A DNA stretch of 64,000 bases from Pristiophorus japonicus (lineage: Eukaryota), in NCBI RefSeq assembly GCF_044704955.1, contig NC_091989.1, positions 74,214,001 to 74,278,000 on the forward strand, given 5' to 3'. The notes under the pieces were generated by a model. That model did no database searches and was not told where the DNA came from. It was given only the letters and a program-made list of their open reading frames with translations. This document shows, one piece after another, positions 2,973 to 18,928 of this stretch. A program made the translations under genes and the position numbers. How positions within the stretch are numbered: position 1 is the first letter of the stretch; the number at the start of each line of letters is the position of its first letter.

Positions 2973-3966
2973 GTGGGTCTAATCCCTCAAATGAGTTTTT
3001 TTTTAAGTAGAGTGCAGCATCTAATTGTTTTTTATTTCTTATTTTCAGTTTGTGAAAATTAACATTTTTCAAAGTAATTTTCAAATTATTTTCTCTCCAC
3101 ATCATATTTCTGTTTGCTAGCCCACATTCAGTGTCAGTGAACAGGTTAGTAAATTTGAAATTTGAATTTAAAATAGAACATACGATCACGAAAACTGATC
3201 AGTCGGTTATATTGCATGTAACACATGGCGGTGTGCAATATAATCTTTTTTTTTTTGTTTTAATAGTTTTCCGTTTCAATTTTGCAGTCACTCTCAAACT
3301 GTCTGCTCTTGTAGTAACATTACCTTATGACCCTTTGTATGATACTGTCATAAATATTGCTCCCTTACATCCGTATTGTTCTTTCCATTGTATGTGTTTT
3401 AATGTATCTGCCCTGTATAGTATTTGTGTGGCATGCAATGATAATGTACCTGCTGCAATTTGTGTATTGTTGGAACGCTTTCTACACACTGATTGGAAAA
3501 AAGTGCTTTACGGAAATGTTTTTAAAATAAGCGTAAAATATTTATACATTGTGTTTTTCAAAGTAGTATTTTACCAGTGAAAATTAGCTTTTATACGGTT
3601 CAAGGGTTTTTAACTGTACTATTCTGAGTACAATGAGATTGTAGTGAAGGTTTTACTGCATCATGTTGTGCCGGTACTCCCAGATTCGGTTGAATTGTGC
3701 CGTCGAGCTAACTGGTGCAATGTTGCCACAAGGTGGCACAGTAATCTAATCAAAATACGTCGTTTTAAGAGTGGTAAAGGGAAACTAGAATTGATGATCT
3801 GCACATCACCATCATGCTGTCCTAAAAGGAAGGGTCAAGTTAATGAATAACACAGATTAATGCATTTAAAAGTAAATTTGAAATCTTGATAAATATTTCT
3901 ATGCTACATAAACTGTCAGAATTCAAGAGCTTGATGCAGTTTTTTTAAGTTTGCAAATGATACGAA

Positions 3967-8023: not shown

Positions 8024-8108
8024 GAAGAACAACATGCAAACACTTCTGCAAATTATGATGTGGAGCTTCTCCATCAAAAAGAGGCTCATACTGAACTACT
8101 AAGAAGTG
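8024..8108 (+). CDS. INTS13: INTS13 coding exon (window exon 2, phase 0-1)
   Basis: tttaaag|GAAGAA...AGAAGTG|gtaagt; encodes EEQHANTSANYDVELLHQKEAHTELLRS. Confidence 0.96.
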
Positions 8109-8344
8109 GTAAGTCACAGTTTAGACTCCGTTTAGTCAAAATTCGTCATAAATGTCATCAAATTTTATAAAATTGCCGAGTGCTAGGAATAAAAAAGCAG
8201 ATTAACCCTCCCCTTTCAGTATTCATTCCTCTGGCTCTAAAAGCAGTTTTTAGCCATTTTTCTTTTGCTAACTGGGGACTGAATTCCAATGCTCTCCCGA
8301 CTAGCCTCCCACCTTGCACACTCTGTAAACTTGAACTGATCCAA

Positions 8345-8598
8345 AAGAAGTGGGGGATGTACAAGAGGCCTGAGTCAGAGAAACGCAGAGTTTTGAGGGT
8401 TGTAGGGCTGCAGGAAGATAGAGATAGGGAGGGCGGGACCATGGAGGGATTTGAACACAAGGATGAGAATTTTAAAATTGAGGTGTTGTTGGACCGTGAA
8501 CCAATGTAGGTCAGTGAGCACAGGGGTGATGCGTGAACTGGACTTTGTGCGAGTTAGGATACAGGCAGCAGAGTTTTAGATAAGCTAAAGTTTACAGA
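8345..8598 (-). mobile_element. L2-like LINE fragment (probable)
   Basis: Recalled similarity to shark L2 3' regions (ggatgagaattttaaaattgagg...gaaccaatgtaggtcagtgagcacaggggtgat). Confidence 0.5.
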
Positions 8599-8895
8599 GA
8601 CGTTAAACCGGGGCCTCATCTGCCCTCTCAGGTGGGCTTAACAGATCCCATGTGACTATTCAAAGAGCAGGGGAATTCTTGCAGAGTTCTGGTCAATATT
8701 TATCCCTCAACCAACATCACTAAAACGGTTAATCTGGTCATTATTACATTGCTGTTTGTGGGAGCTTGCTGTGTGTAAATTGGCTGCCGTGTTGTTACAT
8801 TACAACAGTGACTACACTCCAAAAGTATTTCACTGGCAGTAAAGTGCCTTGGGACATCCTGAGGTTGTGATTGGTGCCATGTAATTATCAGTTCT
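8598..8895 (+). mobile_element. DeuSINE (SacSINE1-like) fragment
   Basis: Deu-domain-like gttaaaccgggcc...ctctcaggtgg...gatcccatg...tttatccctcaaccaacatcac; homologous to 30300-30740. Confidence 0.75.
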
Positions 8896-8929
8896 TAATT
8901 CACACAATATTTTCTGCAATATATATAGT

Positions 8930-10098
8930 GGGCTAGATTTTCGTTTCTGCTCAATGGCGGCGGGGCGGTAAAGTTTGCGCCTGGGAACAGTTTGCGCCTC
9001 AGTCAACAAAATTCATCAGCTGGGCCCTGAGTATGGGGTGGAGCGCTAAGGGAGGCGTGTGTGTAACACCTCCCTTAGGGCTAGATTTTTGCCAACTTTG
9101 CGACTGGATTTTCGCTGCGATTTGACCCTCCACGGCGAAAACCCGGTCGGCAAGATCTTCGGGCATCTTTTGCCGGCGGCGTTTCCACGTACCGCCGGGA
9201 AGAGGTGCGCCCACGTGCAACGCCGCAAATTGCGTTACCGTCGTACCTTTGGCACTCTCCGCCATGCTCAGAATACCGACGGGTCAAACCTGTCGGTGCA
9301 GCCCTGTCAGCAGCAATAAGTATGAAGACCTGCAAAAAAAAAGGTAAGTTAAAGGTTTTATTAATTATTTTTCAGCAATTTAGTAAGTAAGGGTTTTGTG
9401 AATTTTTTTTTTGCAATTTCTCCCCGCCCCCCCCCCCTCCCCACCAAGGCCTCTCTTGCAGAACTACCGGCCCCGGACTAAGTTGCCGAAACTCGCAGTT
9501 TATACCACGAATCCTCATGCAATGCCGACTTTACCAATGGCGCAGACGTAAAGGCTGAAATTTAGGCCTAAAAACGCATCAAAAATGGTAATTTTGGCGT
9601 AAAACTTCGTGGACAACTGAAAATCTAGCCTTTAGAGCGCTAGGCTGGCTGAGCAAGTGAAAATCCCCAGCTAAACAGCCGGCCTGGGGGGAGCTTTTTA
9701 AAAAAAAATACCAACCAAAAACATTCCCAATAAATAATTCACACCACGACAACATAAATCGCAAAAAAAAAACAATCACACTTACCTGAGGTGGACATTT
9801 ACTGACCTCACTGCGGCCGCGACAGCTCGGACCGCCCGCTTTCACAGGCGGTACCAACAGGGGGCGCTCTATGTGGCGCTACGGATCGGACGGCAGCCAA
9901 AAATCGAGTCAGTGTCACGATCAGGGTTGTTGCACACCGGCTCGCCTCTACCGGGTGGTAATGCTCCGCGTCCCGTCGAAACCGGCCCCGAAAACCCCGG
10001 CGTGGTGCTGTTAGCTGGCCGCCCGGAAGTGCTTACTGCCGCCATTGCCGCCCCTCCGGGGCACTAACTGGGACAGCGGAAGACCGAAAATCCAGCCT
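8930..10098. mobile_element. Harbinger-type MITE family C (outer element)
   Basis: TIR GGGCTAGATTTTCG / CGAAAATCCAGCCT; contains a nested element. Confidence 0.8.
9078..9631. mobile_element. Nested Harbinger-type MITE with TTA TSD
   Basis: tta|GGGCTAGATTTT ... AAAATCTAGCCT|tta; a 3-bp TWA duplication is typical of PIF/Harbinger. Confidence 0.85.
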
Positions 10099-10322
10099 TA
10101 GTCTGTTTTATACAATGGTTTCATGGAATATATGTGATTGCATACACAGTAGCTTCATAAAACATGGATGTACTTTCTTGAGAACCCATTTAAAAAAAAA
10201 AAACATCAGTATGCAGCCACAAAATAAAGTATCTAAGGTTATTAACATTGTGAAATATAGAGTGTGTCATCTGTGCTATTATTTTGGTCGTGACTGACAG
10301 TTCTTTTTTGTTTTTTTCACAG

Positions 10323-10349
10323 AAGGGAGGAACATGACACCGATAACAT
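10323..10349 (+). CDS. Candidate 27-nt alternative microexon of INTS13
   Basis: ctgac branch motif, ttcttttttgtttttttcacag acceptor and gtatgc donor. Frame-preserving, no stop in the phase-1 intron; adds (E)GRNMTPIT(F). Confidence 0.5.
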
Positions 10350-10698
10350 GTATGCCAAATTTTATTATCATTGAATTAGTAGATGTTGGTAAAATTATAC
10401 AGATATTAACTTTTCTATTGTGTTAGCCAGCTCATCGAGCAACTGCTATAGGGTGGGATAAGAACATATGGCCACTGGAATAAGAAGACATCTGAAAAAT
10501 TACAAAATTCTGATTCTGCTGCACCTAACTTTTTATAGAACAAAAAAAGAAACATCCAGCTTTTGTGTGTTCTTTATTCCTTTCTTTCCAAGCTTCCTCC
10601 TTTAGACAGAAGACGTGATATTCGCAATTCCATCCTTTCCTTCAACTACTGTCTGTCCCACCTGTGACAGAGACTGTAATTCCCGTATTGGACTGTAC

Positions 10699-12365
10699 AT
10701 CATCATCATCATCATAGGCAGTCCCTCGGAATCGAGGAAGACTTGCTTCCACTCTAAATATGGAGTTCTCAGGTGACTGAACAGTCCAATACGAGAGCCA
10801 CAGTCTCTGTCACAGGTGGGACAGACAGTTGTTGACGGAAAGGATGGGTGGGGCAGGTTTGCTGCAAGCTCTTTCCGCTGCCTGCGCTTGATTTCTGCAT
10901 GCTCTCGTCGATGAGACTCGAGGTGCTCAGCGCCATCCCAGATACACTTCCTGCACTTGGAGCGATCTTTGGCCAGGGACTCCCAGGTGTCGGTGGGGAT
11001 GTTGCACTTTATCAGGGAGGCTTTGAGGGTGTCCTTGTAACGTTTCCTCTGCCCACCTTTGGCTCGTTTGCCATGACTGAATTCCGAGTAGAGTGCTTGC
11101 TTTGGGAGTCTCATGTCTGACATGCGGACAATGTGGCCTGCCCAGCGGAGCTGATCAAGTGTGGTCAGTGCTTCAATGCTGGTGATGTTGGCCTGGACGA
11201 GGATGTTGGGGTATCTGTCCTCCCAGGGGATTTGTAGGATCTTGCAGAGACATCGTTGGTGGTATTTCTCCAGTGACTTGAGGTGTCTACTGTACATGGT
11301 CCATGTCTCTGAGCCATACAGGAGGGCAGGTATTACTACAGCCCTGCAGACCATGAGCTTTGTGGCAGATTTGAGGGCCTGGTCTTCCAACACTCTTTTC
11401 CTCAGGTGGCCGAAGGCTGCGCTGGCTCACTGGGGTGGGTATTGAATATCCTCATCAATGTCTGTTTTTGTTGATAAAAGGCTCCCGAGGTATGGGAAAT
11501 TGTCCACGTTGTCGAGGGCCGCGCCATGGATCTTGATGACTGGGGGACAGTGCTGTGCGGCGAGGACCTTTGTCTTATGGATGTTTAGCGTAAGGCTCAT
11601 GCTTTCTTACGTCTCTGTAAATATGTCGACTATGTCCTGGAGTTCAGCCTCTGAATGTGTGCAGGCGTCATCCGTGTACTGTAGCTCAACAACAGAGGTT
11701 GGGGTGGTGTTGGACCTGGCCCGGAGGCGGCGAAAGTTGAACAGCTTCCTACTGGTTCTGTAGTTTAGTTTAGTTCTGTTGTGTATCTGTAAAGCATGCA
11801 CTCCCATGTTCCGCCACCAGGGAGTGCATCCCCTGAAGTCCCAAGGGATCCCAGCATCCTTTGGGAGCACTGTATATAAGCCGGCCCCTAAGGCCTGTTC
11901 CTCACTCTGGAGTGTCTTATGAAAGACTGAGGTCACTGTTACTTTAACCTCCCTATGTGCAGCCTCATCTGTGTTAGGAACACAATAAGTTCCACTCCAG
12001 CGGGGAGCTTGTTGACTATGAGGTGGAGCATGGCAGCGAGGAAGATTGAAAAGAGTGTTGGGGCGATGACGCAGCCCTGTTTGACCCCGGTCCGGACGTG
12101 GATTGGGTCTGTAATGGATCTGTTGATAAGGATCGTGGCCTGCATGTTATTGTGGAGCAGGCGGAGGATGTTGACGAACCTTTGGCAGCATCCGAAACGG
12201 AGGAGGACACTTCATAGACCCTGGCGGTTGACAGTGTCAAAGGCCTTTGTAAGGTCAAAGAGGGCCATGTATAAGGGCTGGTGTTGCTCCCTGCATTTTT
12301 CCTGCAGCTGTCGAGCTGCAAAGATCCTGTCCGTTGTGCCCCGTAGGGGACGAAATCCGCATTGT
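10699..12365 (-). mobile_element. RTE-clade LINE, RT region to 3' end, decayed
   Basis: GFRPLRGTTD, FDLTKAFDTV, GVKQGCVIAPTLFSIF, LQYTDD, C-terminal CPTC..C...H..H; (CAT)n tail near 10699. Confidence 0.93.
11777..11987 (+). mobile_element. Solo LTR inserted in the RTE
   Basis: TGTTGTGT...ACACAATA termini; 5-bp TSD AGTTC (11772-11776, 11988-11992); internal TATATAA. The RTE sequence resumes across it. Confidence 0.88.
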
Positions 12366-12521
12366 GGTGCCAGAAGATGGCCGCCGGGGTGGCAGCTCCC
12401 TAGGGAGCTCCCCTGCTGAACAACTATCATCATCTGCTGTCCGACAACTTGCACCCCAGCTTCCCCCCTCTCACTGTCTAAACCTCCCTAGACCCTACTA
12501 GGGGGTCTTGGACACTTAATC

Positions 12522-12603
12522 GGACTGGACAGTCACCTGAGAACTCACTTTTAGAGTGGAAGCAAGTCTCCTCGATTTCGAGGGACTGCCAATGATGATG
12601 ATG
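12522..12603 (+). mobile_element. RTE 3' end; continuation of fragment 10630-10698
   Basis: ggactg(t/g)aca is duplicated on both sides of the minus-strand RTE; (ATG)n tail. Confidence 0.7.
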
Positions 12604-12659
12604 GGTTGCAGTCAAAGCCACTCGGAGGTGAACTTTCTGCCCTCCTTGAGCATTTCTCA

Positions 12660-12903
12660 TTATAACTGCTCAACCATCAGTGGCCGTGCCTTCAACTGCT
12701 TGGGGTCCCAATCTCTGGAACTCCCTGCCTAAACCTCTCCGCTTCTCTACCTCCTTTAAGACGCTCCTTAAAAGTTACCTCTTTGACCAAGCTTTTGGTC
12801 ATCATCTTATGTGGCTCGGTGTCACATTTATCTGTTTTGTCTCATAATACTGCTGTGAAGCGCCTTGGGACATTTAACTACGTTATATAAATAAAAGTTG
12901 TTG
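12660..12903 (+). mobile_element. L2-type 3' tail fragment
   Basis: ctctggaactccctgcctaaacctctccg...gaccaagcttttggtca...ataaataaaagttgttg. Confidence 0.65.
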
Positions 12904-13047
12904 ATGGGCACCGATAATTTGCCAACCTGTTGAGATGGGGATCCGACTGTGAACTCACTCAGTCTAGTTCTCCAACAGACCTAAGCAAAACTTTTCCCAT
13001 CTAAATACGTTTGAACTTGGGCATACAACAGTAGAAGGCTAGGTGTA

Positions 13048-13473
13048 GAGTCTCGTGTCTGGCATGTGAACTATGTGGCCTGTCCAACAAATCTGATCAA
13101 GTGTGGTCAGTGCTTCGATGCTGGTACTCTGAACTCCTTCACGGCAAACAAGCCAAAGGTGGGCAGTGGAAATGTTACAAGGACACCCTCAAAGCCTCCC
13201 TGATAAAGTGCAACATCCCCACTGACCCTTGCCAAAGACCGGGAGGGCGCTGAGCACCTCGAGTCTCATCGCCGAGAGCATGCAGAAATCAAGCGCAGGC
13301 AGCGGAAGGAACACGCGGCAAACCTGTCCCACTCACCCCTTCCCTCAATGACTGTGTCCCACCTGTGACAGGGACTGTGGTTCTTGTATTGGACTGTACA
13401 GCCACCTAAGAACTCATGTTAAGAGTGGAAGCAAGTCTTCTTTGATTCCGAGGGACTGTCTATGATGATGATG
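13048..13473 (+). mobile_element. RTE 3' fragment with 5' inversion
   Basis: 13048-13123 is antisense RTE, 13124-13473 is sense RTE with (ATG)n tail; TSD AGGTGTAGAGT. Confidence 0.85.
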
Positions 13474-14074
13474 AGGTGTAGAGTGAGCAGGACCGCTGTT
13501 CCAAAGTGAAACCTTTGTGATTTAAGTTTAGAGGATCAATCATTAAGTTGTTCAAAACACTTTTTTTAAGCTGACTGTGTGACACCATTTGTTTTTTACT
13601 CACTGGGCTACAAACGTCTTGCCACCAATGCAGCCATTTAGCTGTCCATTGGAGGCTCAATGCAGTGGTATGGTAATGTGGCTTTTCTGAGTTGTCTCCC
13701 AATATCTCCCTCTGTTGGACACCTTTTAGTGGCAGTGTGGTGGACTCAGAAATCAGTGGAGTGGTGCAGGAATTTAAGATCCTCCATTCGGTTGTTGAGT
13801 ATTTGTTCTGTGCACAATTTCAGTAAAGTTAAATTAAGAATTAGGAGCAGGAGTAGGCCAGGTGGCCCCTCGAGCCTACTCCGCCATTTGATAAGATCCT
13901 GGCTGATCTTCGACCTCAACTCCGCTTTCCCCTCCCGCCGATCCCGAGTGTTGCTGATCATTTTGAAGAAATTTCAAATTTTAAATCAGCATATTTTGTA
14001 ATTAGTTTTGAGTTTGGTGGATTACAATTTTAAGTTGCTCCCTAGTTGTACTTTTCAATGACCGTTCCATCAGA

Positions 14075-16590
14075 TAAGAACATAACCTAATAAGAGCAGG
14101 AGTAGGTCATTTGGCTCTTCGAGACTGCTCTGCCATTCAACAAGATCACATGGCGGATCATCTACCTCAATTCCACTGTCCTGCACTATCCCCATCCCCA
14201 TATCCCTTAATTCCCTTAGTTCCCAAAAATTTATCGACCTCTGTCTTGAACATAATCAATGACTGAGCATCCACAGCTCTCTAGGATAGACAAATTCCAA
14301 AGATTCACAACACTTTGGGCCCAAGTTTCCATATGATTTGCGCCTGATTTTTAGGAGCAACTGGTGGAGAACGGACTATCTTAGAAATCGCAATTCTCCA
14401 CATTTTTTTTTCTGCAGTTCTAGTGAGGTAGAACAGTTCTACTTTGGAACAGAATTTTTTCTTCAAAAGGGGGCGTGTCCGGCCACTGACGCCTGATTTC
14501 AAAGTTTCCACAGTGAAAACGTACTTCAAACTAAAGTAGAATGGAGCAAGTGAAGATTTTTGTAGAACTGAAAAAACCTGTTCTACACATTAAAAAAATC
14601 AGGCGCAGGTTACAAATTAGGCGTCCAGAACGAGGTGGGGGGAAGGGAAGTCATTAAATTCTACAATCAATCCTTATTTATACTTCTACAAATATTATAC
14701 AAATAAATCCAACCTGAATAAACATTTATAAGCAAAGAAAAGATTAAATAAACCATCTTCCTACCTGTGTGAAAGTGCTTCAGCCATCGTTTGTTCCCGC
14801 GGGGGGTGGGGAAGGAAACCGCCGTTTGTTGCCGCGGAGGGGAGGGAGGGGAAGGAGACAGCGGTTTATTGCCGCCGTGGAGGGAAGGGAGGGGGAGGAA
14901 ACTGCTGTTTGTTGCCGTGGAGGGGAGGGAGGGGGAGGAAACCACCGTTTGTTGCCGTGGAGGGGAGGGAGGGGGAGGAAACCGCCGTTTATTGCCGTGG
15001 AGGATGGGGAGGGGAAGGAGACAGTGAGAAGGGTAGCCTCCGTGCTGATGTGCTGATGGCAATATGCTTTTATTAAAAAATGTTCAAAAATTAAACAGCT
15101 ACAAAGAACTACAAAAATGGCCGAGTGCCAATGTTTCCTTCACACTGCGCGTGCGCGAACGCTTCAACGCGCATGCGCAGCGTTGCCGGCAGGAAAAAAA
15201 CTAATTTGAATAGTACCCGCCCCCTCCCACTTACAAAATCGGCGCGAGTGTAGGCTCCGCCCCCCTGGGCGCCGCGCCAAACCGACCAGGAGCTGCAAAG
15301 CACTCGAGAATAGCGTGGTTTTTTTCTGGCGCCGTTCTAGGCGCGAAAAATGGGCGCCCAGCTCGGAGGGGCGCCCGTTTTTTATCCTGTGGAAACTTGG
15401 CCCCTTTGAGTGAAGAAATTCCCCCTCATCTCAGTCCTTATACCCCTTATTCTGAGACTGTGACCCCGTGTTCTAGATTCCCCAGCCAGGGGAAACCTTT
15501 TCTCAGCATTAACCCTGTCAAGCCCCTTAAGAATTTTATATGTTTCAATTCGATCACCTCTCATTCTTCTAAACTCTAGGGAATATAGGCCTAGTCTACT
15601 CAATGTCTCCTCATAAAGCAATCCCCTCATCCCAAGACCCAGCCTAATGAACCTTCGCTGCACTCCCTCCAAGGCAAGTATGTCTTTCCTTAGGTAGGGA
15701 GACCAGAACTGTACACAGTACTCCAGGTGTGGCCTCACCAACGCCCTGTATAATTGTAGTAAGACTTCTTTATTCTTAAACTCTAATCTCTTTGTAACAA
15801 AAGCTAACATACCATTTGCTTTCCTAATTGCTTGCTGTACCTGCATGTTAACTTTCTGTGATTCATGTACAAGGACACCCAGGTCCCTCTGAATGCAAAT
15901 ATTTCCCAGTCTCTCACCATTCAAACAATATTCTGCTTTTTTGTTATTTCTACCAAAGTGGATAACTTCACCCTTCCTACATTGTATTCCATTTGCCATG
16001 TTCTTGCCCACTCAGTCAACCTGTCTATATCTCTCTGCAGCCTCTTTGTGACCTCCTCACAGCTTACTTTCGCACCTAACTTTGTATCATCAACAAACTT
16101 GGATACGGTACACTCGGTCCCTTCATCTAAGTCATTAATATAGATTGTGAATAGCTGAGACCAAAGTACTGATCCTTGCAGTACCCTGCTAGTTACAGCC
16201 TGCCAACCTGAAAAAGTCCAGTTTATTCCTACTCTGTTTTCTGTCCATAAACCAATCCTCAATCCTGCTCATTTATTATCCCCAATCACATGAGTCCTAA
16301 TTTTGTGTATTAACCTCTTGTGTGGCACCTTATCAAATGCTTTTTGAAAATCCAATACACTGCATCCAACTGGTTCCCTCTTATCTATCCTACTTGTTAC
16401 ATCTTCAAAAAACTCAAAAGATTTGTCAAAAGCACAATCTCCCTTTCATAAAACCATGTTGACTCTGCCGAATCATATTACGATTTTCTAAGTGCCCAAA
16501 TATAGATTCTAGCATTTTGCCGACTACTGATGTCTGGCCAGTTGACCTATAGTTCCCCCTTTTTTCTATTCCTCCTTTCTTAAATAGCAG
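14075..16590 (-). mobile_element. CR1 LINE, 5'-truncated, split by a MITE at 14317-15404
   Basis: QHGFMKG, QGSVL, FVDDTKLG, VRPHLEYCVQFW motifs; the 3' UTR rejoins across the MITE. Confidence 0.9.
14317..15404. mobile_element. Harbinger-type MITE family A with TTT TSD
   Basis: ttt|GGGCCCAAGTTTCC ... GGAAACTTGGCCCC|ttt; core is about five copies of a ~40-bp G-rich unit. Confidence 0.92.
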
Positions 16591-16724
16591 GGTTATGTTT
16601 GCTGCTATGATTGTGTTATTGCTTGATTGTACCTTTTCCGTAATGGCACGCAATTTTGAACACATTAAAGTATGAAATCCAGTTGAAATGCAATCATCTG
16701 CACTTGCATTGAAATCTCACCATT

Positions 16725-16968
16725 CAGTGGCAGCACTCTCATCTGAGTCAGGCGGTTATTGGATCGTGCTGCATTGTCAGAGTTGCTGCCTTTCAGATCA
16801 GATGTTAAAACTAAGGCCCTATCTGCCTGTTCAAATGAATGCAAAAGATCCCATGGCTGGTATGAAGAAGAGTAAGGGAGTTCTCCCATAGGCCAATAGT
16901 TATCCCTCAATCAGCACTACCAAAACCAGTCGCATGGTCATTTATCTCATTGCTCTTTGTGGGACCTT
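16725..16968 (+). mobile_element. DeuSINE (SacSINE1-like), degraded
   Basis: gcactctcatctgagtcag head; aaagatcccatggc...ttatccctcaa. Confidence 0.65.
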
Positions 16969-17744
16969 TCCTTCCTCCCTCCTTCCCTTCGGCTGTGGTA
17001 AATACGAAGTTAATGACTAATCGCAGTAGCAAGGTGGTTTCCACTGTGACACAGAATCACATTTTATCCATTTTGAGAAAGATAACTGGGGCTGAAATTT
17101 AATATTGAATATATTTAAGTGCACTCGTATATTTAAATTTTAAGAATCTGTTGAACAGAAGCCTCAAGTGATGCAGGAATGTTAACATATTGTACAAAGC
17201 TCATGTTATTTCAAGCATTTGTCGCCATGGTTCTAATAATACACAAACACGTGATTCAGACATGCCGAAATCCTCCATAACTTGCCACCTACATTACAGA
17301 AAATGGCTCCATCATTCCCAGTTAGTATGTAAATATTCTGATCACATTTGTAAGTTGAATTTGGATTTCCAATGCCTGCACTGAAACTGTTGCAGCATAC
17401 TAGATTGATTGCTTGAATTCCTCTTCCTAGTAGAAGAAAATTTTAATATCGCTTCTTCTAACATTTGTAGGTGACCACTTCAAAGGAAAGAAAGGTAACT
17501 GGTAGTGTAACTTAGTGTTTCATTTAACAGGTTTAGAATTTCTTCCAAAATGATTGCTGGAGGGTATTGAATGGTATGGCTCAAGTTTAATACTGACGAG
17601 GAGTGCCCCTGAAAGTTATTTATCCTGTGAGTCAATGATGTATATATCAAAATGTTGGTTAAAATTTCTGTTGCAGCTGTGTGCAGTACAGTACATGAAT
17701 CAATATAAATATATATATAAATCAACCTTGAACAATCTATTTAA

Positions 17745-18245
17745 TTAATTTTGACCATTTGGGTACCTTACTTCACAACAGATGTCTAGGCCATGGAGAG
17801 GGTGCAGCAGAGTTTCATGGAGATGATACCAGAGATGAACTCCTTTCATTATGAGGAGAGACTAAAGAAAATGGGGCTCTTTTCATTAGAACAGAGAAGG
17901 TTGAGAGAAGTGTTCCAAACTATCAGCTATCTTAATAATAAACAAAATCAGGAGAAAACCTCTTTCCTCTGGTGGCGTGCCAGTAATTAGAAGGCATAAA
18001 ATGAAGGGCATCATCAGAAGAACAAAGGGAGAGGCTAGGAGATAGTTATTTACACAGCGGGTCGTGTTAGGACATTGGAAACCAAATTCATCATCACTTT
18101 TAAAATGGAAATGGATAAGTATTTGAAAAATAAAAACTTAAAGTACGGGGAAAGGGCAGGGGAATTGGTTTAAATTAAATCTTTCCGCGAACCGGCACAG
18201 GCACGATGGGTCGATTTGCCTCTTTCTGTGCTCTTACATTCTGTG
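17745..18245 (+). mobile_element. Old CR1 3' fragment
   Basis: MERVQQSFMEMIPEM..YEERLKKMGLFSLEQRRLR. Confidence 0.8.
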
Positions 18246-18838
18246 ACTTAATGTAACCACCATCACCAGAATGCCATCGATTTTAAAGTACGGTATTTTA
18301 TGTTCTTGCGAGGATTTTATTTGGAAGTTGCAGGTTAAGATTGATGATGAATTGTGTCAGAAATGCAAAACTCCTCGTAGAAAGGAATGGTTGGTACTCC
18401 TACTCACTCCCAATGACTTGGCTGAGTTTCATCAGCTCTCACCTCGTTCACTAGATGGAGTGCCATGTGTCAGCAGAAGGGCAAAACCTGGTTATGTTCA
18501 CTAATCACAGAGCAGTGTTGATGGGAGCCATAGAGAAAGCTGTGGAACACATGCACTGTTCTCCTGGCTGAAGTTGTGACTATTATGTGCCAAAACACTT
18601 AATTTAAACTATGTCTGAAATTGGGTCTGTCTGATAATTATGTGGTTAAATTATCCAAGTCACTTTGGATTGAACTTGAATTCCAATGAAAATGCTCTTT
18701 GAAAGAGTTGAACTATATATTTTTTTGATACCTCGTCTCTTCTAGAACACTGAGATTGAATTTAAGTTTGCTTTAAATGTTTTGAATTTTCCTTGTTCAA
18801 CCAAAATTCTATCTTCTGTTTTTGGTTTTATCTTGCAG

Positions 18839-18928
18839 TTGATCCACATCTATGCAGTAGCAATAGAGAGAGTGCTGCCAAAGAGACTGTGACATTAAAG
18901 TGGTGTACCCCACGAACCAATAATGTTG
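18839..18928 (+). CDS. INTS13: INTS13 coding exon (window exon 3, phase 1-1)
   Basis: tcttgcag|TTGAT...AATGTTG|gtaagt; encodes (V)DPHLCSSNRESAAKETVTLKWCTPRTNNV. Confidence 0.95.

Follow-up and report, generated by a model that had tools for sequence, protein, structure and literature searches.

An exon of exactly 27 nt, accompanied by the same branch motif, pyrimidine tract, acceptor AG and donor GT, recurs in introns of six unrelated genes (INTS13, HGS, ILF3, KHSRP, PIK3R4 and INTS3), and judged from their letters the six copies almost certainly share a common descent. The family has at least six copies, as found by sequence and pattern searches of the genome. All six are intronic, on the sense strand and in frame, and each is built of GTGAY, a pyrimidine tract, ACAG, 27 nt and GTA (Table 1). 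The window, that is the whole 64-kb stretch of DNA that was analysed, holds most of the vertebrate INTS13 gene on the + strand (Pfam PF10221; exon map), and the sequence-only reading that had described a single INTS13 exon in it was right about that exon and missed the five homologous cassettes in the other genes. A dispersed, two-frame, frame-preserving family of 27-nt exons appears undescribed, and a full-text literature search, with few subscription papers covered, returned no paper on it.

Table 1. Positions of the INTS13 features in the window and of the homologous 27-nt exons in the genome (G000).
Feature	Position	Strand	Remarks
Third short INTS13 exon, 24 nt, phase 0, PTFSVSEQ	3121-3144	+	in human disordered loop 268-278
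Upstream INTS13 exon EEQH...ELLRS	8024-8108	+	ends in phase 1; read in sequence and contigs
Branch-point-like GTGAC/CTGAC	10290-10298	+	GTGAC (10290-10294) overlaps CTGAC (10294-10298); GTGAY 5' of all six copies; putative branch site
Pyrimidine tract and acceptor	10301-10322	+	tract 10301-10319, AG 10321-10322; ..ACAG common to all six copies; acceptor use seen in contigs
27-nt microexon, E-GRNMTPIT-F	10323-10349	+	homologous 27-nt exons in HGS, ILF3, KHSRP, PIK3R4, INTS3
Donor GTATGC	10350-10355	+	0.9 bits on a simple consensus matrix of our own; use seen in contigs
U-rich downstream intron element	10356-10384	+	common to copies; candidate splicing enhancer
Second cassette exon, 24 nt, C-DHFKGKK-V	17471-17494	+	same intron, unrelated to the 27-nt exon; single copy in genome
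Downstream INTS13 exon DPHL...RTNNV	18839-18928	+	sequence and contigs
HGS copy, 27-nt exon	C16:127040965-127040991	+	genome search/patterns; host identified as HGS
KHSRP copy, 27-nt exon	C24:3210846-3210872	+	genome search/patterns; host identified as KHSRP
PIK3R4 copy, 27-nt exon	C5:39973050-39973076	-	genome search/patterns; host identified as PIK3R4
ILF3 copy, 27-nt exon	C3138:342177-342203	-	genome search/patterns; host identified as ILF3
INTS3 copy, 27-nt exon	C32:3694245-3694271	+	looser patterns; host identified as INTS3

Searching the genome with the INTS13 exon and its flanks gave three further places, patterns added the fifth copy and looser patterns the sixth, in INTS3. The same kind of DNA search with the ILF3 copy returned only itself, and such a search is thus insensitive. 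Tight genome-wide patterns gave four matches against none in the control, and five against none. On a leave-one-out matrix of the 27 exon letters only, the members scored 15.8-32.2 bits and the 2674 other AG-27nt-GT sites at most 10.9, and the INTS3 copy, scored with a profile built from the other five, reached 32.7 bits, with 11.4 for the best non-member. Pairwise identity of the exons is 15-23 of 27 letters, and this holds across two reading frames: INTS13 reads the exon in phase 1 and the other five copies in phase 2, as KEDLDASN, MEDHDNFT, PEDHHPFN, KEDHYTCN and EEDQDNYR. The likeness continues into the intron, with a U-rich tail in five of the six copies and, between INTS13 and HGS, 30 identical letters out of 33 at +3 to +35 after the donor. 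Among the five phase-2 copies it is the third codon positions that differ least (4 changes against 8 and 11, which are small numbers). Convergence of the peptides cannot explain the likeness, because third positions are not relaxed and INTS13 and HGS share these intron letters, and not only the peptide but also the RNA seems to be under constraint.

Among the looser patterns, one gave 2 extra matches and another 1, which profile scoring dropped where they were scored. One with 116 matches, of which 100 were listed, and 315 in its control held one new member, and others gave 27 against 13 and 54 against 21 in the control, the latter mostly from one tandem array. Profile scoring took in at most 30 loci per pattern and kept INTS3 only, the other rows being judged by eye at most. 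A tandem array at G000:C36:31.64-31.65 Mb, which came up with an acceptor-like pattern, is made of repeats about 41 nt long that contain a C-run, and is not a family member.

The INTS13 exon is real, in frame and conserved, and it lies within a tolerant loop. Its anatomy is exactly as first read, with CTGAC, pyrimidine tract, AG, 27 nt and GTATGC, and it falls within the microexon range of 3-27 nt, with AG and GT ends, a length that is a multiple of three and no stop. The intron, 8109-18838, is in phase 1, so that skipping gives LLRS-V-DPHL and inclusion LLRS-EGRNMTPITF-DPHL, and the stop-free phase-1 insertion that had been predicted is reproduced from the sequence. When both strands of the 64-kb window were filtered for at least 15 pyrimidines out of 18, YAG, 27 nt, GTR and an open phase-1 frame, 10323-10349 was the sole site that passed. 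The donor is weak, the flanking constitutive INTS13 donors having mostly 4-8 bits on the same simple consensus matrix. The insert is placed directly after human S296, and human residues 295-311 are reported as omitted for disorder from the INTS13-INTS14 crystal model (PMC7347597), which bears out the earlier remark that an insertion is plausible here. The exon would thus lengthen a disordered surface loop, likely without disturbing the INTS13-INTS14 fold; an AlphaFold model of the inclusion isoform had a mean pLDDT of 36.7 and was uninformative.

Splicing was followed in assembled contigs of 5 of the 24 listed runs, none of them on record as RNA, and three of these runs (X19-X21) belong to one study and are possibly not independent of database annotation. 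The junction 10349/18839 (GT..AG) is present in contigs of all four runs in one comparison, which took in two organisms, and of three of four runs in another, and the junction 8108/10323 in contigs of two of four runs. Both predicted junctions were found together on a single unbroken contig in each of runs X20 and X21. In run X19 the upstream contig extends 4 letters beyond 8108 and the next contig has the last 22 exon letters; the contigs of this run break inside the microexon near its fifth letter (10327), which may be a heterozygous site. Run X5 had no contig match to the exons at 99% likeness. The exon is included in unbranched contigs of two of three runs of organism F, and no skip joint was among the joints listed for the runs examined, both to be read with the fact that contigs drop rare forms. 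With its tandem acceptor, CAG-AAG, the exon could also be shortened to 24 nt; in the contigs it is the first AG that is used.

Conservation in other cartilaginous fishes, proposed earlier as a check, was found as well: a nine-residue insert is present in 46 of 56 chondrichthyan INTS13 entries and in 19 of 22 species, chimaera among them (EGKTIAALT in Callorhinchus), and a UniRef entry labelled Pristiophorus japonicus has the identical insert. In skates it is one residue shorter than the shark and ray form. The annotated isoforms of Carcharodon, Cetorhinus and Stegostoma include forms with the exon and forms without it, and for the three species of bamboo and epaulette shark the entries examined were skip forms only. 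One of the ten entries without the insert is an aberrant chimaera model. As database isoforms contain the insert, the INTS13 exon itself is already annotated. The T-P motif that the sequence-only reading pointed out is not essential, and an interpretation built on it is not supported: of the 19 species that have the insert, 13 keep T-P and 6 have AP, TT, QA or AA in its place. None of 80 bony-vertebrate entries that span the site has the insert, a further 10 of the 90 not spanning it or not parsing. At the same place of INTS13, unrelated inserts are found in four crocodilian entries (18 residues) and one axolotl entry (8 residues), and chimaera INTS13 has a further insert of 23 residues in the same intron, for which no match was found within the INTS13 intron of the window. 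With unrelated inserts in crocodilians, axolotl and chimaera, this intron is a hotspot for exon gain.

The window has other short INTS13 exons. The earlier reading of this intron stands for the 27-nt exon and overlooked a second cassette exon, of 24 nt at 17471-17494, which is annotated in sharks, rays and Callorhinchus and which, among the entries examined, occurs only together with the 27-nt exon. For the third one, upstream, 22 of the 115 entries that cover its site have related inserts, and since UGC stands directly before its acceptor it is a better candidate for SRRM3/4 control. Exon 2844-2972 (129 nt) is absent from one isoform with the peptide of the window (709 against 752 residues), a further in-frame skip.

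Of 53 chondrichthyan HGS entries 50 cover the insertion site, and 37 of these 50 have the insert, which is found in 12 of 16 species; Callorhinchus, Scyliorhinus torazame and Stegostoma each have skip as well as inclusion forms. For ILF3, 40 of 41 chondrichthyan entries have the insert, the exception being the single Callorhinchus entry, and inclusion looks near-constitutive from the 40 elasmobranch-type entries, all of which have it. Among bony-vertebrate entries spanning the site the insert was found in none of 98 (of 106) for HGS and none of 104 (of 107) for ILF3. The entries for INTS13, HGS and ILF3 were the best 120 of 482, 512 and 600 protein matches, together with some cluster members, and as these best 120 held few ray-finned fishes (0, 1 and 5) and no jawless fishes, the limit to chondrichthyans is provisional. 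The KHSRP, PIK3R4 and INTS3 copies are predicted to be included; a search of 50%-cluster representatives with a PIK3R4 exon gave 150 rows, and the insert was in none of the 16 inspected, but the closest matches were mostly single-exon fragments, which makes this search uninformative about inclusion. Since Callorhinchus has the inserts of INTS13 and HGS, at least these two copies predate the split of sharks and chimaeras, which is placed at about 420 million years ago (PMC6238376).

Regulation by the neural SRRM3/4 programme, which had been suggested for the INTS13 exon, is not supported. As had been noted for that exon, UGC is missing upstream of the acceptor, and it is found at -20 to -3 in none of the six copies; the branch motif is near, at -22 to -30 in all six (positions by motif, not mapped), and the exon is included in those two of three runs of organism F. 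Human neural microexons under SRRM3/4 are described as having an extended distance from branch to AG, with a median of 45 nt, and some neural microexons are without UGC (PMC12871342). The donors score 0.5-1.1 bits on our simple matrix, and INTS3, the copy from which the U-rich tail is gone, has the strongest at 2.5 bits. TIA proteins have been reported to bind 10-28 nt downstream of exons (PMC2964331), and the weak donors together with a U-rich tail in this range make a TIA1-type enhancer the likeliest helper. Inclusion would then likely go through a general factor, e.g. TIA1 aiding U1 at the weak donor, rather than through SRRM3/4.

How did one short exon come to be in six genes? We think it rather probable that the six cassettes go back to a single ancestral unit, about 100 nt long, which was spread by a mobile element now decayed. 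The unit would have entered housekeeping genes along the chondrichthyan stem, likely through an element that is now extinct, and would have come complete with a branch site, an acceptor, a donor and a U-rich enhancer. Having complete splice signals, any insertion of it in the sense strand of an intron could have become an exon, and with 27 nt and no stop in two of the three frames it may have been tolerated in phase-1 and phase-2 introns at loops or linkers, where selection would then have retained the copies. As no source element was found, the mobile-element step is one that we infer. The genome-wide patterns, with up to 3 mismatches allowed, revealed no high-copy family, none of 30 pair-and-side comparisons of 320 nt on each side of the core exceeded the shuffle maximum, no terminal repeat or tail was visible by eye around the cassettes, and nothing scored more than 10.7 bits in 811 kb of partly redundant DNA. 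The acceptor side showed some likeness to part of a LINE reverse transcriptase, which at 8.3 bits was rejected. Decay could hide old copies that are not exons, and an age of more than 420 million years would erase the marks of an element.

The same lack of a repeat source or hallmark in the genome patterns and the 811-kb scoring counts for another route, which we regard as conceivable but somewhat doubtful, namely that a founder microexon arose de novo in one host and was copied with short flanks by DNA repair capture, ectopic gene conversion or reverse transcription of a pre-mRNA or lariat fragment. All six host genes are broadly expressed, and homology is confined to the splice signals and about 35 nt, which would fit with this. 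It would however be hard, without a mobile unit, for five transfers to occur independently and yet share such short boundaries, and homologous exons derived from a retroposon are documented in unrelated genes (PMC9148063). Convergence on splice signals and on the binding sites of one regulator, for instance the SRRM3/4 programme, is the least probable explanation and already largely refuted. It is true that the copies are all of 27 nt with weak donors, that branch, tract and donor motifs are generic, and that some neural microexons are reported to be without UGC (PMC12871342), but the exon letters alone set the members apart from the 2674 control sites, their identity extends over two frames, UGC is missing from all six, and the ILF3 insert looks nearly constitutive. 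Almost as improbable is that the conserved 100 nt or so are an intron-encoded, snoRNA-like RNA moving between housekeeping hosts, with the exon as a by-product. The conservation of nucleotides does reach into the intron and the hosts are housekeeping genes; against this, no Rfam family was found at gathering score in the four of six loci scanned (best 23.7 bits), folding five copies to a consensus gave 6 pairs at -2.4 kcal/mol and no compensatory change, and the conserved parts are exactly the splice signals of an exon that, in INTS13, is spliced into mRNA.

Taken alone the INTS13 exon is ordinary and already annotated, and what gives it meaning is that the cassette recurs in six unrelated genes and two frames and has persisted since before sharks and chimaeras parted. 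The origins of microexons have mostly been studied gene by gene. The six hosts have the same splice signals while inclusion seems to vary among them, ILF3 being near-constitutive and HGS and INTS13 alternative, which makes a natural experiment. A bolder idea, which we hold to be unlikely, is that a self-contained mobile microexon, with branch site, acceptor, donor and enhancer packed into about 100 nt, spread through housekeeping genes before sharks, rays and chimaeras diverged and brought these genes under one shared splicing switch. If true, this would be a splicing regulon built by transposition and kept for more than 420 million years, and it would take in two Integrator subunits and two proteins that bind AU-rich elements. 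INTS13 and INTS3 are the Integrator subunits among the six hosts; KHSRP and ILF3 bind AU-rich RNA, and the tail of the cassette is likewise AU-rich, which may be a coincidence or a sign of feedback regulation.

The family can be compared with several known systems. The INTS13 (Asunder; PF10221) isoforms of RefSeq and UniRef have the same exon in shark, ray and chimaera models, and their entry names are silent on homology with exons of other genes. Neural microexons under SRRM3/4 are, like the shark cassettes, at most 27 nt, frame-preserving and situated in surface loops, whereas the cassettes have no UGC, a short distance from branch to AG and high inclusion in the runs examined, are paralogous across unrelated genes, and are absent from the bony-vertebrate entries examined. 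In the exonization of Alu and MIR, ready-made splice signals are described as making cassette exons of intronic insertions (PMC7786948); those are high-copy repeats with a pyrimidine tract from antisense poly(A), while the shark cassettes number at least six and their homology reaches upstream of the tract to the branch motif. Closest in kind is the LF-SINE, from which 19 coding exons are reported in unrelated tetrapod genes (PCBP2 and others), 16 of them alternatively spliced and 11 with an early stop (PMC9148063). There the source SINE is known, whereas the shark cassettes are without a source element found, and all six are of 27 nt and preserve the frame, with two frames in use. In both cases one ancestral sequence gave rise to homologous exons in different gene families, and by this analogy, which is not a claim of membership, the shark cassette family may be said to work like an exonized element of the LF-SINE type.
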